From positions 1 to 59,359 of IMG/VR virus record IMGVR_UViG_3300020171_000031: 59,359 bases of DNA, one strand, 5' to 3'. The stretch comes from a virus (taxonomy: Duplodnaviria; Caudoviricetes). Positions 10,820 to 44,164 of the stretch are shown here, piece after piece. Each line of letters begins with the position of its first letter. Position 1 is the first letter of the stretch. The translations under genes were made by a program, and so were the position numbers. The notes beneath the pieces were generated by a model that was not told where the DNA came from, searched no databases, and saw only the letters and a program-made list of their open reading frames with translations.

Positions 10820-11979
10820 GCTAGGGCGCCCTCGGGCGCCGGAGCCTCCGCGGACGCCGCAGCCTCCGTGGGCGCAGGTTGCGCCTCCGGCGCTTGAGGC
10901 GTCAGCGCGACCTGGACGCCACAGTGCGGACAGAACATCTGCGGCTTGAGCTGCGCCCGGAGGACCATGAACTGGCCCTTGCAACCCGCACAGGCCAGAA
11001 CGAGAGTCTCCTGCGCCTCGGCGGCGGCGGCGGGCTCCGGCTTGGCCCCATTGGGAGCAGCCTCTTCTAGCGGCTTGTTGCCCACCGGGACGCCGCTCCC
11101 CTGGGCGTTATAGGTGCGCGCCGTCTCTCTAAACGCCCCGATGAAGTCGCCGAGGTTCTCGGTCACCAGATTCTTCGCCTCCTCCAGCATCCGGAGGCGC
11201 CGCTTCTCATTCTCGTCCGTCAGGGTGATCTTCCGTTGCTCCCGCGCATCCTCCAGGTCCATCTTGCGCCACTCGATGGCGAACGAGGGGGGGACGTTCC
11301 CCAGGTCCTTGATGGCGAGTAAGCCCTGCGCCGGGGTGGCGGCCACCACCTGGTCTCGCGGCACGAAGCCCATCATCAAGGCCATCTTGCCCATCCCGTC
11401 CCGTATAGAATCCATGCTGGTGAAGAAGCTGCCCAGAACGTCGAGCGCGGTCGGAGCGGCAGCCGGCTTCTCCGCGACGGGCTCCGTCCCGTCCCGTATG
11501 CCGAACATCCGCATCTGCAACTTCGTCTTGACCTCCGGCGTGAGTTGCCCGACGCCCATCGCCTCGCCCAGGTCGGGGGCGGGTTTGCTTGCCGTCTCTT
11601 TGGCCTTTGCCTCAATGCGTTCCAACTGCGCGGTGAGGTGGGCTTCCCGCTCCTCATGGAGCGTCTGCTCCGCCTGAGTGGCGGCCTGGCCGGCGGCCGT
11701 AGCGCCCTCGCGCAGCTCCTTCATGATTTCGGAGTAGTTGAGACCCAGCGCCTTGCCCGCCTCTATCATGTCGCTGAATGGGCTGGCCGGCTTCTGCCCG
11801 TTCGTGTCCGTCTTGACCGCATCGCCCATCGCCTTGTTAATCTGGATGGCAGACAAGACTTCGGCCGTCTTGGTCATCCGACCTATGAGCTTGTCATACA
11901 CCGTGTCGGACTCCACTACCGGCGCCTTGCCTTCGGGAGTACGCAGTGGTATTGGGAGAGTCTTGCCTTCAAGCGCCAA
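10816..11979 (-). CDS. Coiled-coil protein with C-terminal zinc ribbon
   Basis: AGGAGGT RBS; CAGC...CPHC. Confidence 0.75.
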   Translation of the reverse strand: MALEGKTLPIPLRTPEGKAPVVESDTVYDKLIGRMTKTAEVLSAIQINKAMGDAVKTDTNGQKPASPFSDMIEAGKALGLNYSEIMKELREGATAAGQAATQAEQTLHEEREAHLTAQLERIEAKAKETASKPAPDLGEAMGVGQLTPEVKTKLQMRMFGIRDGTEPVAEKPAAAPTALDVLGSFFTSMDSIRDGMGKMALMMGFVPRDQVVAATPAQGLLAIKDLGNVPPSFAIEWRKMDLEDAREQRKITLTDENEKRRLRMLEEAKNLVTENLGDFIGAFRETARTYNAQGSGVPVGNKPLEEAAPNGAKPEPAAAAEAQETLVLACAGCKGQFMVLRAQLKPQMFCPHCGVQVALTPQAPEAQPAPTEAAASAEAPAPEGALA

Positions 11980-12571
11980 CTCGCACCTCCTGTTTCTGTT
12001 GTTTCTGTCCGTCAGGGGAGAGCAGCTGCGGGAATAGCCTCCCCAACTGCAACTCGTCGGCGTGCTCGTAAAAGTAGCGCGTCACTATCTCGAAGATGAA
12101 CTCCCCCACGCTGGGTTGGTACGCCGGAAACTGAGTGCAGGCCAGGTCGTACAGGACGAGTATGCGGGAGTCCAGCTCGACCTCCTGCGTAACGAAGCGA
12201 CCGCGCAGCGACGCCGTCGTCTCGGGCGCGCTAACGCCGGCGGGCCCCTCCACGGGCTTACCAGACGAACTCTTGTTCAGTAACCCCTTGGACGAGGCTG
12301 TAGAGGAGCTCTTTTCGTCGAAGCCCATCTTGGAGGCGATCATACGGTTCGGCGCTACTACCTCGCCCGTGTCCTCCTTGACCAGGCCCCGGAGGTGATG
12401 CGTCTCCTTCTTCTTGCGCCCATGGGCGATGTGTGTGGTCAGGTCGAAAGTATATCTGTCGAAAGCCGCGCCACAATCGCAGTACCAACGATAGCCCGGA
12501 TGGGGATTGGGGCGGGCGGGCGGGCGCTCGGACGCGGTTGGGGCGTCGGGTCTCTCATCGGGGGTTGGCAC
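11969..12571 (-). CDS. C2H2-like zinc-finger protein
   Basis: CDCG...HIAH; GGAGG RBS before GTG; TTGACA-17-TATCCT upstream. Confidence 0.65.
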   Translation of the reverse strand: MPTPDERPDAPTASERPPARPNPHPGYRWYCDCGAAFDRYTFDLTTHIAHGRKKKETHHLRGLVKEDTGEVVAPNRMIASKMGFDEKSSSTASSKGLLNKSSSGKPVEGPAGVSAPETTASLRGRFVTQEVELDSRILVLYDLACTQFPAYQPSVGEFIFEIVTRYFYEHADELQLGRLFPQLLSPDGQKQQKQEVRVGA

Positions 12572-12647
12572 GCAGCACCTCCACGTGTTAGGATAAGCCA
12601 ATGGACTCTAACTGTCAATCGCCTAGCGATTTCCCAAGGAGGACAGC

Positions 12648-13334
12648 ATGACCACCAACGGGGCCCTCGGTCCCCTGGCCAACCACGTCGGAGTCCGGCT
12701 GGTCGATTGGGCGCTCTCCTGGCTCAGTAAACCACGGAGCGACCCGCAGCAGAGCGCCGACGCCATCTACGAGCGAGAGATGGCACGCCTGACGCAGCTG
12801 GAGCGCATCGCCGCCAGCCCGCAGGCTGCTCACGTGACCCTCCTGGCGCCGATGTCCGAAGAGGCCACCCTGGACCTTCCGACCACCGCCGAGACCATCG
12901 AGGTCTTGAAGAAGAGGCTGGCCAGTGAACTGTACCAACTCCAGCATGACCTCCTGGACGGCGGACGTATCGCGGGAAAGCCATGCGACTGCCTGGTGAA
13001 GCATACCGAGCTGGGCCTCCTGCCGATGGCGAAGGAGTTGGCCGGCATGACCAACGAACCGGTGGGCCACGACATCATCGCGTGGGCCCACCAGAACCTG
13101 CCCCGCATGACGCCCCAGGTAATCGCCGGGGGCGAGTGGGACGAATGGTACCGGAAAGAGGCGGTGTTGCAGGTAAGGGAGTTCCGCAAGCGCCTTCTCG
13201 GAACCGAGTCGGCCTCGGAGGTTGTGCCCACCGGGGTGTGGAGGAAGGCGAATGACCTCGCCGCACGAATCCAGACCGGCGAGATGACACGCGAACAGGC
13301 GGTGGCGGCCCTGAAGGAAGAGCTTAAAGCATAG
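12648..13334 (+). CDS. Hypothetical protein (CDC..H motif)
   Basis: AAGGAGG RBS; divergent from the previous gene. Confidence 0.75.
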   Translation: MTTNGALGPLANHVGVRLVDWALSWLSKPRSDPQQSADAIYEREMARLTQLERIAASPQAAHVTLLAPMSEEATLDLPTTAETIEVLKKRLASELYQLQHDLLDGGRIAGKPCDCLVKHTELGLLPMAKELAGMTNEPVGHDIIAWAHQNLPRMTPQVIAGGEWDEWYRKEAVLQVREFRKRLLGTESASEVVPTGVWRKANDLAARIQTGEMTREQAVAALKEELKA

Positions 13335-15640: not shown

Positions 15641-15897
15641 CGCATCGCACTGTAGACCCCGCCGACGTGACGTGCGCCAGGGTGCTGGAGGTGTACCGGG
15701 AGTACATGCAGAAGCTCGTCCGCCGCTCATCGGACAATTTCCCTGGTCCAATGCCCAGATGCGTCCTCAAGTGGGCTGATGCCGGCTTCGTGCTAGAGTG
15801 CGACACCCCCGAAGATAGGGATAGGGCTGCGAAGGCGCTTTTGGAGGGCGAGGTGCTGGTCCGGGTCGCCTCTTGGGCCAAGCCCGACATCACGTAA
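15586..15897 (+). CDS. Hypothetical protein
   Basis: ORF in operon. Confidence 0.55.
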   Translation: MEPEEVAAALTHTYILAIAHRTVDPADVTCARVLEVYREYMQKLVRRSSDNFPGPMPRCVLKWADAGFVLECDTPEDRDRAAKALLEGEVLVRVASWAKPDIT

Positions 15898-15927
15898 CGG
15901 TGACGTACCCGTGACGTTACCGTTACT
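15894..15927. repeat. Iteron-like 9-bp repeats upstream of the initiator
   Basis: gtgacgtacccgtgacgttaccgttac; inverted near-copy at 16345-16371. Confidence 0.7.
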
Positions 15928-15957: not shown

Positions 15958-16791
15958 ATGGCGTGGATTCAAGTGCATCAGAGCCTGCCAACCCACCGCA
16001 AAACCCTGGCGGCGGCGGCCATTTTAGGGGTGTCGGGCGTGCAGATGGTCGGGCATCTGGTCACTTTCTGGCTCTGGTGTTTGGATAACGCACCTATGGG
16101 CCAGCTAGGCGAAACGCCCAATGCGGTGATTGCCAGCGCGGCCCTCTGGCCCGGGGAGCCAGACGTTTTCGTATCTACTCTTTGCAGCACGCGACTCCTG
16201 GACGGAGCGCCGGGCAACTTGGCAATCCATAACTGGCCGCAATATGGCGGCAAGCTGGTCGAGAGCCGGACCCGGGACGCCGCCCGGCAGCGGGCCTTTC
16301 GCGAGCGCGCACGGCCACCTGTATCTGATGGAGCGTTACCGTTACGTAACGGGTACGTCACGGGTACGTCACGCGCTAGAGTAGAAGAGAGTAGACTTAG
16401 TACTCCTAAGGAGAGTATAGATAAACAACAGTCTGAGGGAGAAGATACTCCGCGCGCGCGGAGTCACGCGCGCATAACGTCGGCAGCGGCATTGTTGGCC
16501 CTCTTCTCACCCACTGAGATGATGAACATAAAGACGCGGTTCAACGGCACCGACTTGGAGTGGGAGGCTGCGAAGTGCGTTGAGTGGCACAGCGCGAAGA
16601 CGAAGGGTGGCCTCCGTAACGGTAAGCTGGGCTTTCGCAATTGGTTGGACCACTGTAAGCAGCGGGAGGTGCGAGATCGAGGAGTCGGAGGAGTCGGAAA
16701 ACCCTATCAGTTCACGAACGCGGGGGACGCGGGGCCTGACGAGTCTCACGAGACTCCTGCCTCGGATGACGCGGGAGGTAGCGCAGTGTAG
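15958..16791 (+). CDS. Phage replication initiator (replisome organiser)
   Basis: MAWIQVHQSLPTHRKT...GHLVTFWLWCLD...IHNWPQYGG; internal iterons; precedes dnaC and dnaB. Confidence 0.85.
   Translation: MAWIQVHQSLPTHRKTLAAAAILGVSGVQMVGHLVTFWLWCLDNAPMGQLGETPNAVIASAALWPGEPDVFVSTLCSTRLLDGAPGNLAIHNWPQYGGKLVESRTRDAARQRAFRERARPPVSDGALPLRNGYVTGTSRARVEESRLSTPKESIDKQQSEGEDTPRARSHARITSAAALLALFSPTEMMNIKTRFNGTDLEWEAAKCVEWHSAKTKGGLRNGKLGFRNWLDHCKQREVRDRGVGGVGKPYQFTNAGDAGPDESHETPASDDAGGSAV
16334..16372. repeat. Iterons inside the initiator gene (putative origin)
   Basis: cgttaccgttacgtaacgggtacgtcacgggtacgtcac followed by an A-rich tract. Confidence 0.65.
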
Positions 16792-24117: not shown

Positions 24118-25572
24118 ATGCCAGTTCGCGTCAACGCCAAGGGCCCGGCAGAGTTCGTCCGCGACCACCTGGGCGCGGGGACGGACTACGTGGGGTCATG
24201 CTTCAAGGCGTACAAGCTCTACCTGCGCCAGCATGGCTACCGCCGTAACATGCCGGGCCGTGAGAGCTTCTCCCGCCTCTTCTGGCAACTGCGGCTGCTG
24301 GGCGCCATCCAACTCGTCCGCGAAGAGCCCATCGGGACCAGCCCCTCCGCGCTGGCGTGGGCTGGCGGCGGCCTCCTGGGCGTGGATGGGCTGAACAAGC
24401 CCTCGCCCCGCCGCTTCTATCGAGTGGCCAACGCACAGCACGCGGCGTGGCGCTCGCCGGAGAAGGCCTATCGGGAGGCCCGTGGCCTGGGCCTCATCAT
24501 CAGGCGGAAGGAGCCGAAGCCCCCGAAGCCTCCAAAGAGAGAGAGGGTAATCAAGCCGTTGGAGGAGGGACTGCGAGAGCTGCGGGAGAAGCGCGATGCG
24601 GAGCGCAAGGCGGCTGCACCAGCTCCTATCGCGCCAGAGGAACCAGTACCCCCCCCGAAAGTGGTAGCACCCCCCAAGCGGAGGGGTAGGCCCCCCAAGG
24701 CCAAGCCCATCGAGGTCAAGGCTGAGGAACAGGTGCCGAAGGCGAAGCGCGGGAGGCCTGCTCTCCGTCCCGTTACGACTTACGCACCCGGTAGCCCCGA
24801 GGCCCTCAAGATGGAGGAGCAGCGCAAGGCGGCAGCCGCGGCCAAGGCTGTGCCGGCTGCACCTGGCAGGATGACGTTTGAGCCGATGAGTCCCCTTGCC
24901 GCCCAGCCTGGCCCCAAGAGCGTCTCGGTACTCATTAGCCATCTGACCGGGCTGCGCACCCTCCCGCCCAACACCCCGGGACTGGCAGACGAGGTGGCAA
25001 AGGTCGCCCTGGGAATGAGGGCCTGGGTGGACCGCCTGGACACCATATCGGAGTACCTGAAGAAAGAGGCTGACCCCGAGAAAGCTGACCAGCTGCCCAA
25101 GCTCCAGTACATGAGCGACATCTCCCTGAAAGCCGCGGACGCGCTCGAAGGACGCGACCTGGCTGCGGCGATTTACGCGCTGGACGAGATGTACCCGACG
25201 CCGGACATCCTGGAGCGGCAGGCGAACGAGTTCCTGCCGGAGATTCTCCTGTTCATGGCCACGCCCGACAGCGTGGTCCGAGACGTCCGCCGGCGCGGGG
25301 CCGAAGAAGAACCGCTTCGCCAGGTGGGTCGCGGCGAGGTGCTGCGTAAGCTGGAGGACCTTGAGGAGCGTCTGCGCTTGCACTATGACCGCGTGCTGGA
25401 CGCGATAGGCATGCGCAGCAATGCGCCCAACCTGCGCCGCCTGGAGAAGTTGGCGAAGGCGCTGGAAGACACGGAGGCGGCCCTGCCGGAGGTCGTGAAC
25501 GCGCTTCAGGCGGGCGACCCCGAGCGGTATCGCCGGGCCCTCCAGGCCCTAAGCCAATGTTGCAGGTGGTGA
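24118..25572 (+). CDS. DNA-binding protein: winged-helix-like N-terminus, AT-hooks, helical C-terminus
   Basis: SFSRLFWQLRLLGAIQLV..PRRFYR; KRRGRPPK and KRGRP. Confidence 0.65.
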   Translation: MPVRVNAKGPAEFVRDHLGAGTDYVGSCFKAYKLYLRQHGYRRNMPGRESFSRLFWQLRLLGAIQLVREEPIGTSPSALAWAGGGLLGVDGLNKPSPRRFYRVANAQHAAWRSPEKAYREARGLGLIIRRKEPKPPKPPKRERVIKPLEEGLRELREKRDAERKAAAPAPIAPEEPVPPPKVVAPPKRRGRPPKAKPIEVKAEEQVPKAKRGRPALRPVTTYAPGSPEALKMEEQRKAAAAAKAVPAAPGRMTFEPMSPLAAQPGPKSVSVLISHLTGLRTLPPNTPGLADEVAKVALGMRAWVDRLDTISEYLKKEADPEKADQLPKLQYMSDISLKAADALEGRDLAAAIYALDEMYPTPDILERQANEFLPEILLFMATPDSVVRDVRRRGAEEEPLRQVGRGEVLRKLEDLEERLRLHYDRVLDAIGMRSNAPNLRRLEKLAKALEDTEAALPEVVNALQAGDPERYRRALQALSQCCRW

Positions 25573-26194: not shown

Positions 26195-26486
26195 CATCAC
26201 GTGTCTGGCCCCACTCGTTCGGGACATCCTCCTGGAAGCCCTCGAGGAGAATGACGCGCCCTCCCGCGTGCTGACGAAGCTGCGCACCGTCCCCGATTGC
26301 CCTAGTGAGGAGCTGGTGGGCTTTGGCCGGGCCAAAGGGGTGAAAGGCGTCGCCAGGAAGCCGAACGCGCGGGCCCAGTGGATAGGGGCGTGCATCAAAA
26401 CGGAGTACGCGCGGCAGAAGCAGCCGGTGCCCCAGCTGATGCGCGAGTGCTCCGCCCGGTGGCGGCAGCAGAAAGCACCCTCATGA
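26187..26486 (+). CDS. Small basic protein with HMG-box-like C-terminus
   Basis: RKPNARAQWIGACIK...MRECSARWRQQK. Confidence 0.6.
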   Translation: MPSITCLAPLVRDILLEALEENDAPSRVLTKLRTVPDCPSEELVGFGRAKGVKGVARKPNARAQWIGACIKTEYARQKQPVPQLMRECSARWRQQKAPS

Positions 26487-26511
26487 AGGAAACTAGAGTG
26501 AGAGGAGTTCC

Positions 26512-26904
26512 ATGGACATCTCGATAGCTGTCAACAATCTAATCCAGAGCTACCCGTTCGTGGCCCTGACCGTTCTCCTCTTGGCCAACGTGGTCCTGGG
26601 TGCCCTGAACGCCCTCCGACCCGATCCGGACGGCGTGCGTAGGTTCACAGCCCTGGAGCTCACGGACATCTGCAAGAAGGTGGTGCCATTCATCGGCACC
26701 TACTTCGCCCTGGGCACCGGTGGGGAGGTATTGCAGAATGGCTATGGCGAGCTGTTGAAGGCCGTGGGAGCTGTTCTACCTGGTATCGCCTTCGCTCTAG
26801 GCACCCTGAAGAACGCTCTGGGTCTGGTAAACATCCAGGTTCCGTCTTGGCTTGTGTGGCTCTACCCACAGAAAGTCGCAGTGCGCGGCCCGAATATGGG
26901 GTAG
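26512..26904 (+). CDS. Holin-like multi-TM membrane protein
   Basis: GAGGAG RBS; three hydrophobic segments. Confidence 0.6.
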   Translation: MDISIAVNNLIQSYPFVALTVLLLANVVLGALNALRPDPDGVRRFTALELTDICKKVVPFIGTYFALGTGGEVLQNGYGELLKAVGAVLPGIAFALGTLKNALGLVNIQVPSWLVWLYPQKVAVRGPNMG

Positions 26905-26919
26905 GTAGCCGCACCCCTC

Positions 26920-26948
26920 TTGACAAGCCCCTGGCCTGCGAGTATGCT
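26920..26948 (+). promoter_or_regulatory. sigma70-type promoter of a small RNA
   Basis: TTGACA-17-TATGCT. Confidence 0.7.
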
Positions 26949-26952
26949 TGAC

Positions 26953-27029
26953 CTTGCCTGGTTAGTCTGCCTTGCCAGGCCACATCTCCTTGTACCGCTC
27001 CTCTTGCCACGGGGGGGCGGTACTGTTTT
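26953..27029 (+). ncRNA. Candidate trans-acting antisense sRNA (~75 nt)
   Basis: Own promoter, 5' hairpin, unpaired cacatctcctt, intrinsic terminator; 18/19 complementary to 29424-29442. Confidence 0.65.
26992..27029 (+). terminator. Intrinsic terminator
   Basis: gtaccgctcctc...ggggggcggtac followed by tgttttt. Confidence 0.75.
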
Positions 27030-27066
27030 TAGTCACCAGCGACAGGCTTTATGAACAGTTAAAGGC

Positions 27067-27096
27067 TTGACAAAGCCCTCTCATCTAATGTAGAGT
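27067..27096 (+). promoter_or_regulatory. sigma70-type promoter upstream of the tRNA and array 1
   Basis: TTGACA-18-TAGAGT. Confidence 0.6.
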
Positions 27097-27130
27097 GGGG
27101 CTGAGGCCAGACGTGGGGCTGAGGCCTGAC
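27095..27130 (+). repeat. 18-bp tandem repeat
   Basis: gtggggctgaggccagac / gtggggctgaggcctgac. Confidence 0.9.
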
Positions 27131-27134
27131 GCGA

Positions 27135-27202
27135 TGCGGGGGCATGGTGCACTGGGGTCTCATAAGCCTCTGGGCTTGGTTCGATTCCAGGCCCCGCTAC
27201 CA
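27135..27202 (+). tRNA. tRNA-Met(CAT)-like gene with truncated D-arm
   Basis: Acceptor tgcgggg/ccccgct-A-CCA, anticodon loop ctCATaa, T-arm cttgg-ttcgatt-ccagg; only 12 nt in the D region. Confidence 0.7.
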
Positions 27203-27350
27203 AGTGAGCTGCCGAACAGTCGCCGTCCAAGACGGCGTTCGGAGAAGGAGATGGAGATATGCGTAGGGCACTCTCATGGGTCTGGGAAGCGCTGGTACGT
27301 GGCGAACAGTTGAAAGGGCTTTCCTGGGGGCCTTGGTTCCTGGTGCAGCC

Positions 27351-27692
27351 ATGACGGACCCGAAGGATGCAGCCTGTCCCCGCTGTGGAGCGGAAGCAGG
27401 TCAACCCTGTAAGACCAAGACGGGGGCGGTGGTCAACTCGCGAGGGAACGTGCATCCGGCGCGGCTCCCTTTGCCGAGCACCATTCTCACCCTCCTGAAC
27501 ACCAAGCTGGTGGACGTGTTGGAGTTCCGGCCGGCCGCCCGGGCTGGCCGGAAGGACATCCCGTGGTTGCTCCGTCGGGCCGCAGACGTGCTGGAGAGCG
27601 ACGACCGGCCCATCGAGGGGATAGAGCTCACCCTGGAGGCGGCGCCGGACGGCACCTGGGTGCTCGTGGCCCAGGTGGTGCATCCGCAGTAG
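27351..27692 (+). CDS. Zinc-finger protein directly upstream of array 1
   Basis: CPRCGA..GQPC...HPAR. Confidence 0.7.
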   Translation: MTDPKDAACPRCGAEAGQPCKTKTGAVVNSRGNVHPARLPLPSTILTLLNTKLVDVLEFRPAARAGRKDIPWLLRRAADVLESDDRPIEGIELTLEAAPDGTWVLVAQVVHPQ

Positions 27693-27694
27693 AG

Positions 27695-28020
27695 GGCGAA
27701 GGGGGAGGAAGGGCCAGGTCGGGGCAGGCTGGCGAACGGCTGGGAACGGAGAGGCTGGCGGTAGGAAAGGGGACGTGCGGCTTGGGGAGGTAGGCGGACG
27801 GAAAGGCGCGGCTCGGCTCTGGTAGGCGATAGGGTGGGGGCTAGAACAGGACAGGCTGGCGGAAGGTCAGGGAAGGGCGGAACCGGGTCGGCTAGGCTGG
27901 CGGTAGGAATGGGCCGGAATGGGGAGGCTGGCGGGAGGGCAGAACCGGACTGGGTTGGCCAGGCTGGCGGTAGGTTTGGGGAGGGCGGGCCAGGAGGCGA
28001 ACGGGCGAAGACAGGCACGG
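27695..28020 (+). repeat. GG-pentamer array 1 (9 full GGCG-delimited units plus a degenerate tenth); candidate guide RNA array
   Basis: GGCG at 27695, 27731, 27757, 27793, 27825, 27858, 27899, 27930, 27966, 27996; GG every 5 nt inside units. Confidence 0.9.
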
Positions 28021-28051
28021 ATGTGGTAAACTATCGGTGAAAGGAGGAGCC

Positions 28052-28477
28052 ATGCTGCTACGGTTACTCATGTTCCTGGTGTCCTTCCTGGTCCTGGTGG
28101 TGGCCCTGGTGGTCCAGCTGGTGGGGAGCATCGTCGCCACCTTCCTGACCGCCTCGCGGCCGGCTGTCCGCATTCTCACGATGCCCCTGCGGGTGCTCAA
28201 ACATCCACCCGCGATGTCCCTGGTGGCCTTCAGTTGGTTGATGAGAAGCGCCGCCCTGGTCCTGGTTACAACCACCAGGGCCACTTCCGGCGCATGCACA
28301 CGACTGGTTAACATCCTCGTTGGACGACCTGCTGCGAGCGCCAACCATATTGACGTGAAGGGTCTAGCCCGGCATCACCTGGCGCTGCGGGAGACCGGCC
28401 TACGTGGACGACAGCTGCGCGTTCTGCTCACACGGCTGTGGGACTTGCCCAGCGTGGGCGTGACCTCCGCGGGCTAA
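28052..28477 (+). CDS. Membrane protein
   Basis: AAGGAGG RBS; long N-terminal hydrophobic helix. Confidence 0.55.
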   Translation: MLLRLLMFLVSFLVLVVALVVQLVGSIVATFLTASRPAVRILTMPLRVLKHPPAMSLVAFSWLMRSAALVLVTTTRATSGACTRLVNILVGRPAASANHIDVKGLARHHLALRETGLRGRQLRVLLTRLWDLPSVGVTSAG

Positions 28478-28837
28478 TCAGCCGCCTAAACCGGCTTACG
28501 CCCCTGACTTCCAAGGCCAGGGCGTCTGCCGTTCCGCCACAGCGTGCATTCATCACAGGCTGGATAACCAGTACCGAGCAATGCACGGGACAGAGGGCGA
28601 CCCACCAGGGCCGCCCTCTTGTGTTGCCTCTAGGGAAACGTAGCTGCGCGGAGGAGGGCTCGCCACTGGAGACCACGCCGCACCCGCCGGTGGTGCGCAT
28701 CGCCTGATCACACCGCCACCACTCGCCAGATACAGGCCAGATATAACAGCCGCCCGAAGCGCCAGCCCCACGTAGCCCTATCTACTAGCATATAAATCAA
28801 CGTTGAGTATGCGAGTGACCTAACTCTAGTTAAAGCC

Positions 28838-28866
28838 TTGACATAGAGCCTGGACTAGGGTATATT
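28838..28866 (+). promoter_or_regulatory. Near-consensus sigma70-type early promoter
   Basis: TTGACA-17-TATATT. Confidence 0.75.
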
Positions 28867-29053
28867 GTATCTGCGCAAGGCAAATCTAAGCGCCAGGTGA
28901 ATCGAATCCGAAACCGACCACAACCGAATAGGCAACGGTCTACCCTGAGGTACTGGCCGCAAGGCCAAAAGACTCACCGTAGGCCAGAAAGCCAAATGGC
29001 TTCACTCTCTCTAGGCGTGGCATAAGCAAGCCATAGCCTACAGGGGGTGAAAC

Positions 29054-29329
29054 ATGACAGAGTTTGCCGGGGTTAGAGTCCAGGGCACAAAGGGCTTAGG
29101 ACTAGCGCCGTTTTCCGGAATATTCGCCGACGAAGCAGCGGGCCCGACGAAGAGCTTGGTGCAAGCACGGTCCGAGCTCCAGTACATCGTGGCAGAGTTG
29201 CAGGGCATCCTGGACGGCGAGTTCGATGGCACAGACGCCGAGTGGGCGAAGTACGACGCTGAGGGCGGCGACGATGCCGTCTTGCAGGTGCTCGTACATC
29301 GCCTGGACGCCATCACCTGTCGTATTTAG
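29054..29329 (+). CDS. Small acidic protein
   Basis: GGGGGTG RBS; D/E-rich. Confidence 0.65.
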   Translation: MTEFAGVRVQGTKGLGLAPFSGIFADEAAGPTKSLVQARSELQYIVAELQGILDGEFDGTDAEWAKYDAEGGDDAVLQVLVHRLDAITCRI

Positions 29330-29436
29330 GTGCGGGGCTTCCGCCCCGCCTAGAGAGAGTGAAGCCAAAGGTTCCCGCTACTGGGCGGCGCCCTCTCCCT
29401 CTTCAAGAATCTGAACGGAAGAGAAGGAGATGTGGC

Positions 29437-30081
29437 ATGGCAGAGACAATCCAGGCGACCCCAGTAGTGACAACCCCCGTAGACCCCCTGGCCGACGAGG
29501 AGGCCAAGTTGCTGGCCAAGCTGGCCGCACTCCGGGCGGAGCGCGTGGTCAACACGGCCAGGGACATCTTGACGGCGGGCCTCAAGGCCAAGCTCCCGGA
29601 CGTGGTCAAGGCCGTCACGGACGAGGCCAAGTTCGACCTCCACAAGGCGGGAGTGGGCGTGTGGCTGTACTACGCCAAGGAGACGGGCAGCCCGATGATA
29701 TGCCTGCTCTCCGTCGGCGACGACGGCCTCCACCCCAAGGCCATGAAAGTCCACAAGGCGACCAACGGCAACGGGACGCCCAAGGCGGCCTCCAACGGCA
29801 ACGGCAACGGCAACGGCAACGGGAAGCCCGCCGGCGTCGAGTACGACGCCTTCCTGTACGACGGGCGGGGCCCGTTTCCCGTCGGGGCGGACTACAAGAC
29901 GGCGTACGACGCCGTCTTCGACGCCCTGGCCGTCCCGAAGGCGGAGCGCCCCAACCACAACAGGCCGGAGAGGTGGGCGGGCAAGTGGCAGGCCCGCGTC
30001 CTCATCGTGGAGCGCGGGAAGCGCCCCACAGACCAGCAGTTCGCGGAGGCCAAGGCGAAGGTGGCCTCCATCAAGTCCTAG
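29437..30081 (+). CDS. Hypothetical protein with RPxHxR domain
   Basis: AAGGAG RBS; very high GC3; NG linker. Confidence 0.8.
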   Translation: MAETIQATPVVTTPVDPLADEEAKLLAKLAALRAERVVNTARDILTAGLKAKLPDVVKAVTDEAKFDLHKAGVGVWLYYAKETGSPMICLLSVGDDGLHPKAMKVHKATNGNGTPKAASNGNGNGNGNGKPAGVEYDAFLYDGRGPFPVGADYKTAYDAVFDALAVPKAERPNHNRPERWAGKWQARVLIVERGKRPTDQQFAEAKAKVASIKS

Positions 30082-30163
30082 AACCCAGGCGGGAGGGGCG
30101 CCGCCCAGTAGCGGGAACCGACTCACTTCCTCCAGGCGCAGCAGAAGCGCAGGAGGAGGAGAC

Positions 30164-30424
30164 ATGAACCAGTGCATCCGGGGGAAGGTGGTGCCGTTCT
30201 GGAAGCAGCCCATCATCTACAAGGTGGTGGACTGGGCTGCCGACCACTACTACGGCTGGTTCCGGGATGTGGACCGTGCGGAGGCACGGGCCCGGGAAGT
30301 CCACGGCCTGGTGGTGTCCCAGACTGTTGGTGCCGGGACGCGCTTCCTGGCGAGCATCCGCCAAGCGGGTGAGTTCGCCAAGGCAGCGGCCAAGATGGAT
30401 GCCAACGGTGGGAGGTTGGAGTAG
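30164..30424 (+). CDS. Hypothetical protein
   Basis: AGGAGG RBS. Confidence 0.7.
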   Translation: MNQCIRGKVVPFWKQPIIYKVVDWAADHYYGWFRDVDRAEARAREVHGLVVSQTVGAGTRFLASIRQAGEFAKAAAKMDANGGRLE

Positions 30425-30500
30425 GTCGGGGCTTCTGCCCCGCCTGGAGGAAGTGAGGCTCGTCTCACCCGACGGCGGGATAACGCCGAGGAGGTGTGAC

Positions 30501-30707
30501 GTGACCATCGAAGAGACGATGGCCAAGATGGACGCCGCGGGCGCGGAGGCCGGGAAGGAGCTGGCCGAGACGTTCGAGCCGGCGGAGATCCGCAAGGTGG
30601 GGGCCTGGCTGGACCGCCACTGGCGGAAGGCGGGGTACAAGCGGCTCGTCGGAGAGCTGCTGGTCCAGGGCGGGTTCCAGTGGAACCCGCGGCCTCCGAA
30701 GGGCTAG
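30501..30707 (+). CDS. Hypothetical protein (68 aa)
   Basis: GAGGAGGT RBS, GTG start; W..HW..AGYKRL. Confidence 0.7.
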   Translation: MTIEETMAKMDAAGAEAGKELAETFEPAEIRKVGAWLDRHWRKAGYKRLVGELLVQGGFQWNPRPPKG

Positions 30708-30883
30708 GTACGGGGGTTCTCCCCCCGTCGGGTGAGACGAGAGTTCGCTCCCTCCGGGTGCGGCAGAAGCCGTAGCCCGATGTGCCTCCCGGGCTGGACG
30801 AGATGGTGCCAGGTACTCGGGGCGGCGCGGCGAATGGCCGGCTTCTGCCGCACCCGGAGTGAGCGAAGAAAGGAGATGTGGCA

Positions 30884-31061
30884 ATGGCGAGGTTCTGGCA
30901 GGCGCCAGAGCCGCCGGACGTGGCCGCCCAACGTGCGAAGCTGGGGCAGGCGTTGGGGCTGCACAGTACGGTATGCGGATGCTCACCCTGGGGTCACGGT
31001 ATACGCATGGCGCGACATCCGCCACGGGTTGTTCTTCGGGATGAAGACGATAGTGGAGTAG
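30884..31061 (+). pseudogene. Small gene with a probable 1-nt insertion in a G run near 30955
   Basis: RBS and GC3 favour frame MARFWQ... in the first half and ...CTVRYADAH...KTIVE* in the second. Confidence 0.45.
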
Positions 31062-31137
31062 GCGCGGTTGCGCCTCCCCCAGGAGGGCCGAGACGGCTCC
31101 GCCATCTTGGGGGAGATGCAAACGAAAGGAGATGTGC

Positions 31138-32178
31138 ATGACAGCAGGCAAACCCTGTCCCGTGGCAGGCTGCGGGTACGCGGCGCTGTCGCAGGGCGAC
31201 CTGGACGGGCACACCGCCTACGCTCACCGTGAGCGGAAGCCGACCCCCTCCGGCAACCCTGTGGCCGCGCCTCCAGCTCCGCAGCGGGCCGACAAGCCGG
31301 AGTGGCATCCGGCGCTGTACGTCCCGCAACGCGACCCGCACTTTTGGGTTGCGGACGAAACCACCCGCTTGTTCTTCGTCCTGCAAATGCGGACGGAGGC
31401 GGGCCATCAGGAGAACGTGCTTCTCCGTGGCCCCAAGGGGACGGGCAAGACGACGCTGCCGCGGATATACGCGGCGGCGTGCAAGCGCCCGTTCTTCTCC
31501 ATGGACTGCGGAGCCGTCTCGGAGCTCTCCGACTGGTGGGGTGACAAGGAGCTGGAGGGCGGGCGCACCTTCACTGTGAGAGCAGCCCTGGTGGACGCCC
31601 TGGAGACAGAGAACTGTGTCGTCCTGCTGGACGAGGCCAACAGGACGCATCCCGAGAACCTGAACGCCCTATTCGGCCTCCTGGACCACAGGCGAGCCGC
31701 GTGGGTCCCGCTGCTCCGGCGGGAGGTACGCGTGGCGCGGGGCGTGACGTTCTTCACGACGCTCAACGAGGGGACGGAGTACGCGGGCACCAACCCCGTG
31801 GACTCGGCCCTGCGGGACAGGTTCTCCTACACCATCGTGACCACCTGGCCGCCGGAGCTTGAGGAGGCGGCCATCCTGGTGGGCCGAACGGGGGTGGACC
31901 AGGATATGGCGGCGAAGTTGGTACGGTTCGCCAACACCGTCCGCCGCACCCCCGCCATCCACTACGCCCTGTCCACCAGGGCCCTCTTGGCCACGTGCCA
32001 GTGTCTCCAGGAGGGCATGGCGTTGCAGGAGGCGGCGCTGTTCACTGTCGTCAACGCGGCGCCCGAGGATGTGGACCGAAAACTCCTTCTGCAAGCGCTT
32101 CAGATGCACGTCGGGAAGATTGACGAGGCGTGGGTAGTCTCCGTGACGGGCGAAGCCGTCCAGGGGGCGACGCCATGA
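31138..32178 (+). CDS. MoxR/CbbQ-type AAA+ ATPase with N-terminal C2H2 finger
   Basis: CPVAGC...HTAYAH; GPKGTGKT; LLDEANR; ALRDRF; STR. Confidence 0.92.
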   Translation: MTAGKPCPVAGCGYAALSQGDLDGHTAYAHRERKPTPSGNPVAAPPAPQRADKPEWHPALYVPQRDPHFWVADETTRLFFVLQMRTEAGHQENVLLRGPKGTGKTTLPRIYAAACKRPFFSMDCGAVSELSDWWGDKELEGGRTFTVRAALVDALETENCVVLLDEANRTHPENLNALFGLLDHRRAAWVPLLRREVRVARGVTFFTTLNEGTEYAGTNPVDSALRDRFSYTIVTTWPPELEEAAILVGRTGVDQDMAAKLVRFANTVRRTPAIHYALSTRALLATCQCLQEGMALQEAALFTVVNAAPEDVDRKLLLQALQMHVGKIDEAWVVSVTGEAVQGATP

Positions 32179-39268: not shown

Positions 39269-39425
39269 CCTGCGAGTCGTGCGGGGGTAAGACGGCGATG
39301 TCGGAAGTGCCGAAGGATTTGGGATAGGCAGCGGAGATCAGTTTCTGAAGGAGGTGAGGCTGGACATTAGCTTGCGGGTCCCCATGCAATGGATGAAGAA
39401 TGCCTGAAAGAAGGAGATGGGAGAG

Positions 39426-39845
39426 ATGTCAGACACCAAACGGTTGTTCGTAATCAGCGGCAAGGAGTACCCGGACCCCGATGCGGCACTGACCGTCGAG
39501 GACGTGAAGAGCCATTACGCCGCCTTCTTCCCGGAGCTCGCGACGGCGACGGCCAAGGAGGAGGTGCGGCCCGACGGCGTCACGGTCGTGACGTTTGCGA
39601 GACAGGTAGGCACCAAGGGCGCGCTGGCGCCAGTGGTGCCGGCCACGTATCTGCCAGGCCGGCACGTATCTGCGGACCTCTCGGACTACAACCCCGGCGA
39701 CGAAGGCACGCGGAGGTGCTTGAAGTGCCTGGCCACGCAGGACTTCCGGGTCGGGCCCTATGGAGGCTTGCACCTCGGCCTTTGGAAGAGGGAGGGCAAG
39801 CCCGCTCCCAGGTGCCCGAAGGCGGCGAAGGGCGGCAGGTCCTGA
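39426..39845 (+). CDS. Prokaryotic ubiquitin-like protein (PRTRC protein C type) with C-terminal extension
   Basis: R.F....YPDPD..LTVEDVK.HYA.FFPELATA...VTF...VGTKG, then 74 extra aa. Confidence 0.85.
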   Translation: MSDTKRLFVISGKEYPDPDAALTVEDVKSHYAAFFPELATATAKEEVRPDGVTVVTFARQVGTKGALAPVVPATYLPGRHVSADLSDYNPGDEGTRRCLKCLATQDFRVGPYGGLHLGLWKREGKPAPRCPKAAKGGRS

Positions 39846-39873
39846 TGCCGATGTTCGTCCAGTGGGGCACTTG

Positions 39874-40086
39874 ATGGAGATGCGTGGTCTTGTAGAGCGG
39901 CTCGCCACCGTGCCGGAGGTGCGGCTGCGTATCATCCTGCTGGCCCATGCAGTCTGGCATGATGGCGAGCTGGACGAGAAGGCGCTGGACAAGATGCAAG
40001 CCGACTTCAACCTGGCCGTCGCGGAGCTGGAGGAGTACACACGCGGCACCGCGGTCACGGTCGCCCATCTGCGAGACCTCCTGTGA
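39874..40086 (+). CDS. Small PRTRC-locus protein
   Basis: Between the ubiquitin-like gene and the F-like gene. Confidence 0.6.
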   Translation: MEMRGLVERLATVPEVRLRIILLAHAVWHDGELDEKALDKMQADFNLAVAELEEYTRGTAVTVAHLRDLL

Positions 40087-40874
40087 GGCTGGCGGAACTG
40101 GCCGGCAAGCTGCGGATGGGGCCGCAGTCGCTACACGGTCTGCGTCGCGCACTGGAGAATGCGGAGGTCGTGTCGGACTTCCGCCGGCTGGTGCACGACT
40201 TCACGCCCCAGGCGGAGGCCCGCATACTGGCGGGAGACGAGCAGGAGCAGGTGCAGGCGTTCCTGCGGGAGTTTGGCCGGCAGACGGGCATCCCACTGAA
40301 CGACGACATCGAGGAGATTGAGCAGCTGCTCTTCTGTATGCCCATCATAGTGCGCGGCTGGTCCTGGGATGACTACATGGAGTGGTCCCACCACGACGTG
40401 CCGGACCAGGTGCTGCTCGCGCTGGTCCAGAGCCCCTTTATGGACGAGGACAATGCCGCGCTGGTAGAGAACCTGGCCCGGCTGGTGCGGGGTGAGGCGT
40501 ATGAGGCGTGGCGTCTGGCAACCCCAACCGGGTGGGAGCCGGCGGAGTTGCATGAGCGGCTGGATGGCACCAGGTGGGAAGGGGTGGCGCGCTTCGCCGA
40601 TTGGCTCTGGAGGGAGACGCAGACGGTCTATCTGGACATGAACTACGAGGAGATGAATAACGACCTGGAGTGGAGTCAGGCGAACGTGCGGTGGCTGCGG
40701 GAGCAGGCCGTGACGGCGGGCCAGATAGAGGACCGGATTGCCGAGGTGTACCACCTCATCGAGCAGAACCCGACGGAGGCGGTGCTGGATATGGTGCGGC
40801 TGATGGGTCCGCGACCCGGTCCGCAACTGCCGCTACCGTTGCTGGAGGTGTTCCGTGACGAACAAGAGAGCTAA
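40083..40874 (+). CDS. PRTRC-locus helical protein (protein F-like)
   Basis: Position in operon; acidic, Trp-rich. Confidence 0.5.
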   Translation: MRLAELAGKLRMGPQSLHGLRRALENAEVVSDFRRLVHDFTPQAEARILAGDEQEQVQAFLREFGRQTGIPLNDDIEEIEQLLFCMPIIVRGWSWDDYMEWSHHDVPDQVLLALVQSPFMDEDNAALVENLARLVRGEAYEAWRLATPTGWEPAELHERLDGTRWEGVARFADWLWRETQTVYLDMNYEEMNNDLEWSQANVRWLREQAVTAGQIEDRIAEVYHLIEQNPTEAVLDMVRLMGPRPGPQLPLPLLEVFRDEQES

Positions 40875-41718
40875 AGGCGTCTGCCCCACTTGTGGACGTG
40901 ATGTGGCTTTGCGGTTGGATGGCACTCTGATGGTGCACCAGCGGTTCTTGGGGACCTCCCTGCCTGATGAGCGAGGTTTCGCGACGCAGACATCACCTGA
41001 TTGCAATGGAGTAGGTCAGTTACCGGTAACGGACCCACCCGCAAAGGCTGGGTTTCACTGGGCGCTGCCACGGGGGCTGGACGTGGAGCCGGATGTGCTC
41101 CAGCTGCGGTTGGACTTCTACCTTGACACCATCCTGCTGACCGACATGCGCGGAGGGGTCAGCACCGTGAAGCCGGTCAGCGCCCGCGACATCGTGCAGG
41201 CGCTGACGCGGGACGTGGCGGTCCAGACGGGCGTGTTGCCGCCCGACGCTCTCTGGTGGCGCAACGGGCCCACCGGAGCCACGGTGGCCTTCTGGCAGCC
41301 GCCCCAGGTGCGCATCCTGGCGTTGCTAGAGCACGCGGGACAGGAGCCGCTGCGGTGCGAGGTGCCGCTGCCCGGCATGGTGTTCGCCTGCCAGCCGGCC
41401 CGTGCCCCGTGGGTCTGGGCCGCAAAGCACCGCCCGACAGGGCCAGAGGCCCTGCTGTACCACGCCCCCCTGTTCAACGTGTTCCGCGATGGCCGTACCT
41501 GCCCAGGCACACAGAGGTATTCGCCAGCGGTGGAGCAAATCCCGTTTGAGTTCTGGGTATCGTTTTTCACGGGTGAGGCGGACCACACGGAGCGGAGCCG
41601 GGCATACCCCAAGAGTCTGAAGGCGCTCTGGCAGAGCCTGGAGGGGGCGAAGCGTTACCCGCCGGATGACCTGGTGCAGTGGGGGGCTGTAAAATCGGCA
41701 ATGGAGGTGGCGCGATGA
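40855..41718 (+). CDS. Prokaryotic E2-like protein (PRTRC protein B type) with N-terminal Zn finger
   Basis: PLPGMVF, RP....LYHAPLFNV..DG..C.G, FW.S.FT. Confidence 0.8.
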   Translation: MTNKRAKGVCPTCGRDVALRLDGTLMVHQRFLGTSLPDERGFATQTSPDCNGVGQLPVTDPPAKAGFHWALPRGLDVEPDVLQLRLDFYLDTILLTDMRGGVSTVKPVSARDIVQALTRDVAVQTGVLPPDALWWRNGPTGATVAFWQPPQVRILALLEHAGQEPLRCEVPLPGMVFACQPARAPWVWAAKHRPTGPEALLYHAPLFNVFRDGRTCPGTQRYSPAVEQIPFEFWVSFFTGEADHTERSRAYPKSLKALWQSLEGAKRYPPDDLVQWGAVKSAMEVAR

Positions 41719-42341
41719 TGGAGGCAAGACCGGACTTCCACTATGAGACGCACGAGGAGTTTTGGAAACGTACTCATCCAGACCCAAAGGTTCGGCGCCC
41801 GGTCGCCTACATGGTGGAGGGCCGGCGCACGGCGCCCGGGCTTGGCTACAGCTACGTGTTGGCTGGCAACGGCCTGTGGATTGAGGCGACGGGCCCCCAC
41901 CTGGCCGTTCGGTTGGAGGTGGCCGAGGCGGAGGTCAGAGGTCTATCGAGCCTAACCCAAGAGGTACGGCTCCTTCACGGGCCAATTCCGAAGGCGCTAC
42001 ACGACCTCCTGGTAGACGTGCTTCTGGCTAATCCGCGAGAGGAGCACTACGTCGCCATCCTGTGGCGCGACGGGCGCTACCAGCTCACCGTCCCAGACCA
42101 GCTTGCGCAGGTCGCCTCCATGACGTACCAGAGGCCAGACCCAGCGGAGCTGGTGTTGGAGGCGCACTCACACCCTCCCGGTGTGGTGGCGCGGTTCTCG
42201 CTGGTGGATGACCGCGATGAGCAGGGGTTGGGCCTGTACGGGGTGTTGGGCATGGATGAGGCAGGCTGGACACTCGCGCTCCGCGCGGGGGTGTACGGCT
42301 ACTACGGTGACGTGGACGTGGCGGAGATCTTCGACGGGTAG
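41715..42341 (+). CDS. JAB/MPN metallo-isopeptidase (PRTRC protein A type)
   Basis: YVLAGNG, E, HSH.....FS..DD.DE, R.GVYGY. Confidence 0.88.
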   Translation: MMEARPDFHYETHEEFWKRTHPDPKVRRPVAYMVEGRRTAPGLGYSYVLAGNGLWIEATGPHLAVRLEVAEAEVRGLSSLTQEVRLLHGPIPKALHDLLVDVLLANPREEHYVAILWRDGRYQLTVPDQLAQVASMTYQRPDPAELVLEAHSHPPGVVARFSLVDDRDEQGLGLYGVLGMDEAGWTLALRAGVYGYYGDVDVAEIFDG

Positions 42342-42610
42342 GCGAAGGGGTGGTTTGGGCCGGGTACGCTGGCGGATGGCTCGGTACGGGCAGGGAAGGC
42401 TAGGAGGGCGAAGGGTAAGAGCTGGAGAGGGGCGGATAGGCTGGCGAAGCGACAGGGGTGGAGCGGCCATGAAGGCGGAGGGTTCGGGATGGGTGGGCTG
42501 CGGGCGGCAAGGGCGGCGATAGGCCAAGAAAGGCGCGGTAGGGCGCGGCGAGGACGGGCTGGCGTAAGGAGAGGGGAAGGGTGGGACGGTTGGCGAAGGG
42601 TGGGGAGGAA
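42341..42610 (+). repeat. GG-pentamer array 2 (7 full GGCG-delimited units plus a degenerate eighth); candidate guide RNA array
   Basis: GGCG at 42341, 42371, 42407, 42443, 42474, 42515, 42561, 42592; GG every 5 nt. Confidence 0.9.
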
Positions 42611-42641
42611 CCGACAGAATAAACAGAAGAAGGAGAAAGAA

Positions 42642-43388
42642 GTGGCAGACGCGAAGGAAGTCAAGGACCTCAAGTTCACGAGGTATCCGGTGACCCTCAC
42701 GATGCACGGGCCCCTGCACGCCACGACGGCGAGCAACCCGGAGAGCATCGCGTACCAGCTACGGAATCAGCCCAGCGAACCCGACCTGGCGGCGCGGCTG
42801 GCGGCAGGGGAGCCGCTCAAGCCGATGGATGCGCTCCAGAAGCAGGTCGAGCAGGAGGCGGGCGCTGCCGAACCACCCCCGGAGCCGATGGCGGTGTTCC
42901 GCCGCGACGACCTGAAGCGGCCGTTTATCCACGACAACTTCATTCGGGGCCACCTGCGGGACGCAGGTGAGGCCCTGTCACGGGCCCTGGGCGTGTGGGG
43001 GCTCCAGCAGCTCATCACCCGGACGGTGTTCGTCCGGCCCGAGCGCATCTACCTCCCGGTGGGCTGCACGGTAGAGGTGGAGACGTGGCCGGCGCACTCC
43101 GACGTGTACCGCATGGGGAGAATCTCCAGCATCCGGCGCGCCGAGTTTGCGCTGGGCGTCACGCTCGAGTTCCGCCTCTACGTGGTGAACGACCCCCGGT
43201 GGGCAGGCGCGAACGGCCGGAAGATTCTGACGTCCGTTCTCCAGTACGGCGCCATCCACGGCATTGGAGGTGGCCGTGGTCGCGGCATGGGGCGCTACAC
43301 GTTCATGCTCGGGGAGGCCATGGAGGTGGAACCCGCCCAGGTGTGGAGCGATATGCAGATTGGCGAGGGTCCATGCCATACCGCATAG
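42642..43388 (+). CDS. Stand-alone Cas7/RAMP-like protein (248 aa)
   Basis: N-terminal strand VTLTMHGPLH, PFIHDNFIRGHLR helix, LEFRL strand, Gly-rich loop YGAIHGIGGGRGRGMGRY; AAGGAG RBS before GTG. Confidence 0.8.
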   Translation: MADAKEVKDLKFTRYPVTLTMHGPLHATTASNPESIAYQLRNQPSEPDLAARLAAGEPLKPMDALQKQVEQEAGAAEPPPEPMAVFRRDDLKRPFIHDNFIRGHLRDAGEALSRALGVWGLQQLITRTVFVRPERIYLPVGCTVEVETWPAHSDVYRMGRISSIRRAEFALGVTLEFRLYVVNDPRWAGANGRKILTSVLQYGAIHGIGGGRGRGMGRYTFMLGEAMEVEPAQVWSDMQIGEGPCHTA

Positions 43389-44164
43389 TCCCGCCTCTTA
43401 CGGCACGTAAACCCCTACTCCTCATCGCGGGCTGTGGCGGCACTGGGAATTGGGTGGCGGAGGGCATCGCCAGGTGGCTGCCCGCTGACTGGCGCCTCGT
43501 CCTGGTGGACCCCGACGTGGTGGAGGAGCACAACCTGCGGCGCCAAGGGTTCCTAAAGAAGGAGGTGGGGAGTTACAAAGCCGAGGTGCTGGCCAGGCGG
43601 CTGGCGGACGGGACCGGCCGGGCGGTGGGATTCGCCGTCGTGCCCATCCGCACCGTGGTGCAGCAGGACCATGAGTTACGCCTCGTTGTGGGTTGCGTGG
43701 ACAACGCGGCGGCCAGGCGGGAGGTCCACGAGGGTCTCCCGCTCGGGGCCTGGTGGCTGGACGCTGGCAACGGCCGCAACTCGGGCCAGGTCCTGCTGGG
43801 GAACGTCCGCGATGCCAGGTCGCTGGAAGGAGGGTTCGCACCCACCGGGACCTGTGACAGGGTGCCCCTGCCCACTCTCCAGATGCCCGAACTGCTGGTG
43901 CCATCTCAGGAGGAGCTGGAACCACTGCCGCCGGACTGCGCGGAGGCGGTGCGAGACGAGCGGCAGAGCCCCGTGGTGAACCAGGCGGTCGCAGGGCTGG
44001 CGCTCAATATGGTATGGCGGTTCCTGCGGGGCGAGTTGGACTGGATGGCGGCGTATCTGGACCTTGATATGGGGACGCTGCGCCACGTCCCGTGTGAACC
44101 CGCCACGGTGGCCAGGCTGTGCGGCGTCAAGACGCGGACCCTACTAGCTAGGGGCGTCCGGTGA
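43373..44164 (+). CDS. ThiF/E1-like activating enzyme (PRTRC type)
   Basis: GCGGTG, DPDVVEEHNLRRQ, GCVDN, WLDAGNG, DCAEA, N. Confidence 0.92.
   Translation: MPYRIVPPLTARKPLLLIAGCGGTGNWVAEGIARWLPADWRLVLVDPDVVEEHNLRRQGFLKKEVGSYKAEVLARRLADGTGRAVGFAVVPIRTVVQQDHELRLVVGCVDNAAARREVHEGLPLGAWWLDAGNGRNSGQVLLGNVRDARSLEGGFAPTGTCDRVPLPTLQMPELLVPSQEELEPLPPDCAEAVRDERQSPVVNQAVAGLALNMVWRFLRGELDWMAAYLDLDMGTLRHVPCEPATVARLCGVKTRTLLARGVR

Follow-up and report, generated by a model that had tools for sequence, protein, structure and literature searches.

A candidate small RNA antisense to three start regions of one downstream operon in an uncultured 59-kb groundwater virus-like element

The window analysed here is a complete IMG/VR virus entry of 59,359 bp (64% G+C). 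It is an uncultured 59-kb groundwater virus-like element, and the 109-bp identical ends of the record are classified as direct terminal repeats. We examined a short unit, at positions 26920-27029, that lies between two blocks of + strand genes. The upstream block includes genes for a RecT-family protein (14046), a DnaC-like loader (16580), a DnaB-like helicase (17487), a radical-SAM protein (18958) and a tyrosine integrase (22318). The downstream block includes the gene for a zinc-finger DNA-binding protein (27351-27692; Pfam PF24623), several small orphan genes, a MoxR/CbbQ-type AAA ATPase gene (31138-32178; Pfam AAA_5 and CbbQ_C) and, further along, genes for a VWA protein (32238), Ku (34964) and an ATP-dependent DNA ligase (36260), followed by a Prok_Ub/E2/JAB/ThiF set at 39426-44164. 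The accessory cargo between 31138 and 44164, with its MoxR-VWA genes, Ku and ATP-dependent ligase, and ubiquitin-like set, is odd for a virus record. A structural PHROG match was found for none of the 10 large minus-strand proteins scanned, and therefore the tailed-phage nature of the element is not shown by this analysis.

The unit consists of a promoter (P1), a predicted non-coding transcript of ~75 nt and an intrinsic terminator (T1; Table 1). P1 begins 15 nt past the stop codon of gene 26512-26904. Only seven sites in the whole record match the promoter consensus at ≥10 of 12 positions, compared with a mean of 0.59 and a maximum of 3 in 100 dinucleotide shuffles; all seven have a perfect TTGACA and, on our reading of the gene map, all seven are intergenic and face genes. 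The predicted transcript has no ATG or GTG, and its only two reading frames, both TTG-started, are without a Shine-Dalgarno sequence. The fold of 26955-27033 has a minimum free energy (MFE) of -36.3 kcal/mol (z = -3.29), with 1 of 200 shuffles folding equally well. In this fold, the 5' hairpin is followed by a single-stranded stretch (26982-26991) that ends in CACAUCUCCUU, and then by the terminator stem (26992-27023), which has 13 pairs, eight of them G-C, and leads into TGTTTTT. Both the MFE and the centroid fold leave the seed single-stranded. Terminator-like sites between 20 and 40 kb are not above chance in number (10 found, 10.8 expected), and the longest stem among these 10 is that of T1. 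A second 10/12 promoter, P2 (TTGACA-18-TAGAGT), starts 40 nt beyond the T1 stem; the unit therefore stands alone, insulated from downstream sequence. Judged by consensus signals alone, the locus has the promoter of its own and the Rho-independent terminator, around a short non-coding stretch, that are expected of a trans-encoded small RNA, and we infer that such an RNA is produced. An earlier, sequence-only reading of this DNA had described the promoter, an ORF-free stretch of about 75 nt, the intrinsic terminator and a seed unpaired between two hairpins, and all four descriptions were confirmed, the ORF-free stretch with the qualification of the two TTG-started frames. Contigs of one DNA run, possibly from the source sample, show no variant letters, indels or inversion joints over 26400-31300; one 73-nt skip among them comes from a low-depth contig with five differences.

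Table 1. Positions of the candidate small RNA unit, its predicted targets and neighbouring features in the window.
Feature	Positions	Strand	Remarks
Promoter P1	26920-26948	+	TTGACA-17-TATGCT; 10/12 consensus positions
Predicted ~75-nt non-coding transcript	26955-27029	+	Start inferred from -10 box, end from U tract
5' hairpin	26956-26981	+	From fold; 3' arm and loop antisense to +1 to +20 of gene 29437
Unpaired 11-nt seed, CACATCTCCTT	26981-26991	+	From fold; opening energy 0.1 kcal/mol
Intrinsic terminator T1	26992-27033	+	13-bp stem, 6-nt loop, U tract; from fold and terminator-like signal
Weak 9-nt match, start region of putative leader ORF 27259-27354	27245-27253	+	-11.1 kcal/mol, rank 5
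Promoter P3	28838-28866	+	TTGACA-17-TATATT, 11/12; best promoter match in the record; its operon holds all three strong predicted targets
Bracket pair 1	28997-29027/29337-29367		
Bracket pair 2	29370-29393/30096-30119		
Predicted target A: Shine-Dalgarno sequence, start codon and first codons of gene 29437-30081 (214 aa, orphan)	29424-29456	+	18/19; 30/36 columns; -13.3 kcal/mol, rank 3 of 76
Bracket pair 3	30122-30148/30431-30457		
Bracket pair 4	30459-30487/30713-30741		
Bracket pair 5	30744-30772/30839-30867		
Predicted target B: start region of ORF 30884-31141	30870-30892	+	13/13; 20/23 columns; -14.2 kcal/mol, rank 2 of 76
Predicted target C: Shine-Dalgarno sequence and spacer of MoxR-type gene 31138-32178	31126-31136	+	11/11; -14.6 kcal/mol, rank 1 of 76
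Weak 9-nt match, start region of Prok_Ub gene 39426-39845	39411-39419	+	-10.3 kcal/mol, rank 8

The operon behind P3 comprises small orphan genes, then MoxR-VWA, Ku, the ATP-dependent ligase and the ubiquitin-like system. For the 29437 protein, we found no homologue except itself among 1463 candidates scored, and no usable match in the structure Atlas (TM at most 0.31). ORF 30884-31141 (85 aa) has a weak coding bias, with a GC3 of 0.57 compared to 0.73-0.96 in its neighbours, and its stop codon overlaps the MoxR start as ATGA. The stop codon of the 31-codon ORF 27259-27354 likewise overlaps the start of the zinc-finger gene as ATGA; these two ORFs may be coupling leaders. A separate observation concerns the region from 28997 to 30867, which has five inverted-repeat pairs of 24-31 nt (90-100% complementary), each bracketing one gene or segment. 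All five stems form in the MFE fold of 28873-31260, and although the right arms are alike, the best partner of each is its own left arm. The layout looks like that of rRNA-type processing stems, placed here around single cistrons.

We compared the unit with the start regions of the window. The 11-mer AAGGAGATGTG has exactly three copies on the + strand (29424, 30870 and 31126), and the only copy of its complement is the one in the unit. With up to one mismatch allowed there are six sites, compared with 0.71 expected, and none of 100 shuffles reaches six. The three + strand copies lie 6-8 nt ahead of the start codons of 29437, 30884 and 31138. As the sequence-only reading had stated, the matches downstream of 29437 are exact, 13/13 at 30870-30882 and 11/11 at 31126-31136; together with the exact 13-mer at 29424-29436, all are in + strand gene start regions within 1.7 kb, and by our arithmetic the expectation for an exact 13-mer with a 75-nt query is ~0.1. 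The 18/19 (95%) complementarity of 26973-26991 to 29424-29442, also claimed earlier, was reproduced as the 19-nt inverted-repeat pair I11, with 2432 nt between the arms, and its sole mismatch is at the A of the 29437 ATG. We were able to lengthen this match: with three gap columns, 26956-26991 and 29424-29456 match in 30 of 36 columns, across the whole 5' hairpin, a similarity that makes the 5' half of the predicted RNA look like an antisense copy of the 29437 start region from -13 to +20. Of 2000 shuffles and 2000 random genome windows, 26 and 10, respectively, score at least as high as the extension beyond the 19-mer (11/13).

In all three start regions AAGGAG is followed by the same spacer, ATGTG, and the proteins encoded there are unrelated at the N-terminus. 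The shorter AAGGAGATG has seven exact sites, compared with 0.35 expected, and five of its six + strand copies are at start regions; selection for a strong ribosome-binding site would account for this excess equally well. The specific signal comes from the spacer ATGTG(GC), common to the three sites, and from the extension into the coding region. The seed differs at one position from the 16S anti-Shine-Dalgarno tail, and because of this resemblance it would pair with any strong, extended Shine-Dalgarno sequence. For the same reason, the 9-nt matches that the sequence-only reading had listed at 27246 and 39411 constitute weak evidence; both are present, the first starting at 27245. An accessible seed whose complementarity to the target start regions exceeds chance, as is characteristic of trans-encoded small RNAs, is thus a property of the unit.

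We next scored pairing with 76 start regions, using a simple IntaRNA-like measure that combines the duplex energy with the opening energies of both partners. In line with the sequence-only reading, for which an IntaRNA-type search had been named as a check, the start regions of 31138, 30884 and 29437 took the first three ranks, in that order (Table 1). Ranks 4-8 (34667, 27259, 34964, 34498 and 39426) are generic strong Shine-Dalgarno sites. Among 70 random intragenic windows the mean score was -1.0 kcal/mol (sd 3.8) and the best was -10.7 kcal/mol; six of the 76 start regions score below this best random window. When the whole 64% G+C genome is scanned for plain duplex formation, the top two sites exceed the background by just 2-4 kcal/mol. 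Extension of the duplex into the 5' hairpin costs 10.8 kcal/mol, with no net gain relative to seed-only pairing.

The most likely reading of these data, which we put forward tentatively, is that the unit encodes a trans-acting antisense small RNA that would block translation initiation at the start regions of 29437, 30884 and MoxR. A non-coding RNA of ~75 nt would be transcribed from P1 and ended at its own terminator, and transcripts reading in from the upstream gene block would carry the same sequence at their 3' end. The single-stranded 11-nt seed would nucleate pairing with the Shine-Dalgarno sequence and the spacer at three P3-operon start regions, namely those of 29437, of the leader ORF 30884 coupled to MoxR, and of MoxR itself; on 29437, the duplex could extend into the 5' hairpin, thereby covering -13 to +20. 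We infer both the pairing and the sign of its effect: duplex formation would block 30S binding and so lower translation, and the ~19-bp duplex might be exposed to a double-strand RNase. What this retains of the earlier proposal, an RNA-based repressor of the early operon set beside the immunity RNAs of P1 and P4, is a promoter-seed-terminator unit antisense, beyond chance, to several start regions of one downstream operon. The label "early" is not supported, the replication and recombination genes (RecT, DnaC-like, DnaB-like, integrase) being in another block, upstream, and an immunity role like that of P1 c4 or P4 CI is not supported. The accompanying statement that no CI-like repressor is evident in the genome cannot be concluded: there were no hits to CI/Cro-type families among the ~54 of ~75 predicted ORFs scanned, each with one or two libraries, and the zinc-finger protein and the unscanned small ORFs remain.

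An unlikely alternative is that the unit is a functionless remnant, a short inverted duplicate of the 29437 start region that came to lie between an upstream terminator and a promoter, with T1 merely ending upstream transcription and with P1 idle or its RNA inert. Read on the minus strand, the copy is indeed a start region in which ATG has turned into CTG, the lone mismatch falling on the A of the start codon; a ~36-nt similarity with indels resembles shared ancestry, and conservation of the unit was not seen in the VWA-homologue loci searched. However, it would be a large coincidence for a 36-nt duplicate to have landed precisely where a 10/12 promoter lies on one side and a strong terminator on the other, its Shine-Dalgarno complement left unpaired between hairpins. 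Moreover, the exact seed also matches two more start regions, and there is no minus-strand gene after the copy. The same complementarity could instead act within one long transcript, such that, upon read-through of T1, 26956-26991 pairs with 29424-29456 and masks the 29437 start region or makes a processing site. We regard this as improbable: P2, P3 and at least one strong terminator separate the arms, a single stem leaves the exact matches at 30870 and 31126 unexplained, and the arm is shorter and less perfect than those of the bracket pairs, even though five gene-enclosing inverted-repeat pairs, all present in the MFE fold, lie nearby and I11 has the same orientation.

Two further explanations set aside antisense pairing. 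In the one, T1 is a promoter-proximal terminator for antitermination control in the style of lambda PR'-tR'/6S RNA, the short RNA being a by-product and read-through into the downstream genes the regulated step. A strong promoter followed by a strong terminator at ~40-75 nt would be consistent with this, as would a second promoter-hairpin unit on the minus strand ahead of gene 48167-47946. Nonetheless, we consider it very improbable, since the downstream genes own a 10/12 promoter, P2, 40 nt past T1, and so lack the dependence on read-through of the lambda 6S type; in addition, the 18/19 and 13/13 antisense matches to start regions go unexplained, and no antiterminator gene was recognised among the ORFs scanned. 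In the other, AAGGAGATGTGGC is a binding site in DNA for a protein such as that of the zinc-finger gene 27351-27692, with three direct copies and one inverted. The four copies are within 4.2 kb and a gene for a zinc-finger DNA-binding protein (PF24623) adjoins, but the motif has no dyad, each direct copy is at Shine-Dalgarno-to-start distance from a start codon and none is at a promoter, and the inverted copy is framed by RNA-level signals, leaving this the least probable of the explanations. A much broader version of the preferred reading, that of a trans-acting antisense RNA, can also be envisaged, in which an RNA-only layer would control the accessory operon. Each cistron would be looped out by its own long-range stem for processing by a double-strand RNase, and one RNA directed against start regions, expressed constitutively and also present at the 3' end of the replication/integrase transcripts, would gate translation of the released cistrons (29437, the MoxR leader and MoxR); without any protein repressor, it would be the main factor silencing the MoxR-VWA, Ku-ligase and ubiquitin-like module while the element is carried. 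We consider this scheme highly doubtful.

The phage RNA c4 blocks the upstream ORF icd, which is translationally coupled to ant, and is processed by RNase P from the leader of its operon. The situation here is similar to that of c4 and icd-ant in that two of the matched start regions belong to putative leader ORFs coupled by ATGA to the next gene. Unlike c4, the unit has a promoter and terminator of its own, with P2, another terminator-like hairpin and P3 between it and the target operon; it has one linear seed between hairpins, whereas c4 has loop-borne segments; and it has three predicted targets and no immunity or antirepressor link. Thus, the analogy to P1 and P4 drawn in the sequence-only reading holds in the sense that the RNA may work like theirs, but membership in the c4 family does not, given the lack of a match to an Rfam covariance model and of any sign that the RNA is cut from the leader it would regulate. 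In PMC12197685, c4 of P1/P7, to which the CI RNA of P4 is related, is described as a phage RNA that acts trans-like on complementary ribosome-binding-site sequences of the phage's own mRNA and blocks translation. VpdS of phage VP882 acts on phage and host mRNAs, according to PMC12197685 (see also PMC5069750), and small RNAs most often sequester the ribosome-binding site, according to the abstract of PMC7534054.

DicF of the Qin prophage and VpdS resemble our candidate in being free-standing small-RNA genes on mobile elements with seed pairing at or near ribosome-binding sites. DicF and VpdS are experimentally shown and Hfq-dependent, whereas the RNA proposed here is predicted from sequence; its predicted targets are only the element's own genes, and one pairing is far longer (30/36 columns). 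Small RNAs with C/U-rich seeds are found in Gram-positive bacteria, as in RsaE/RoxS and the loops of RNAIII. Like these, the seed mimics the anti-Shine-Dalgarno sequence and can reach many start regions, a likeness by description that implies no relation in sequence or structure; unlike them, it reaches into the spacer, which gives specificity for three sites. Among cis-encoded RNAs, P22 sar covers the ant ribosome-binding site. Our candidate shares with sar and with lambda OOP a long near-perfect antisense match to a phage message, but it is not a cis-antisense RNA, being encoded not opposite its target but on the same strand, 2.4 kb upstream. We also considered an RNA antitoxin of a type I toxin-antitoxin pair and rejected it: the targets lie 2.4-4.2 kb from the unit and are not small hydrophobic toxins, being a MoxR ATPase, an 85-aa ORF and an orphan of 214 aa whose translation is not hydrophobic.

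If real, the unit would be a clean natural case in which a single small RNA, in form an antisense copy of one start region, has had its seed re-used on two more start regions of that operon; the element itself represents an uncultured lineage. It would join the small group of phage RNAs that are known to act on translation of the phage's own messages. With three targets and one seed, the system would be compact and open to compensatory-mutation testing in a surrogate host. Blocking of ribosome-binding regions by a small RNA is a known regulatory principle, and the case opens no new principle by itself.

We looked for relatives of the unit and of the genes around it. Rfam gave no matches at the gathering score in the whole window, and at E ≤ 10 there were six matches in 26800-27400, C4 not among them. 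No relatives were found by blastn against a phage collection, nor by protein-anchored scans of viral contigs with 26512-26904, 24118-25572, 29437-30081 and the VWA alignment, and an exact 26-nt pattern was not found in viral contigs. Homologues of the VWA protein are present in 80 metagenome loci and five genome loci, with ≤54% identity in the best segment; four of the five genome loci are from Chloroflexota. The unit was not found by blastn in the 80 VWA-homologue loci or in the genome loci, and the bracketing repeats are absent from the six longest related VWA loci. A search for analogous units in 29 related loci of ≥7 kb, with a crude definition of start regions and a noisy positive control (30 hits in the window), gave a few scattered 13-mers with antisense matches to candidate start regions and nothing resembling the unit.

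P2 drives a tRNA-Met-like element together with the zinc-finger gene. The tRNA-Met-like element, within 27067-27205, has a CAU anticodon loop, a shortened D arm and an encoded CCA, and a direct repeat of ~18 nt lies just before it (27097-27133). It scores 19.1 bits with the Rfam tRNA model, compared with a gathering score of 29, and ARAGORN called no tRNA. Over 42-47 nt, its 3' half shares 80-88% identity with tRNA-Met-like genes from various bacteria. Possible interpretations of the element are a degenerate phage tRNA, a processing signal and an attachment-site remnant. A host search by tRNA match returned no exact hit to the 25-nt 3' end; a 20-nt part matched tRNA-Met-like genes in 25 genomes with low to middle G+C, most of them from Patescibacteria, and we discounted these matches as generic similarity and not host evidence.

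Several other arrangements of sites were observed in the window. On the minus strand, at 48276-48172, the promoter-like sequence TTGACA-17-TAGATT is followed after ~35 nt by a 12-bp hairpin with a U-rich tail that runs straight into the start of gene 48167-47946, and this may be a leader, an attenuator or a 5' stabiliser. Back-to-back promoter-like sites at 12565-12618, TTGACA-17-TATCCT (minus) and TTGGCA-18-TAGGAT (plus), sit between the divergent genes 11969-12601 and 12648-13334 in a switch-like layout; the proteins of both genes matched no Pfam family. Inverted repeats of GTAACGG/GTGACGT units at 15892-15926 and 16335-16372, ~410 nt apart and just upstream of the DnaC-like and DnaB-like genes, are a possible replication origin. 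Finally, arrays of degenerate repeats, each ~32-45 nt long and built around GGCTGGCGGTAGG, occupy two G-rich, apparently non-coding stretches at 27748-27988 and 42413-42583.
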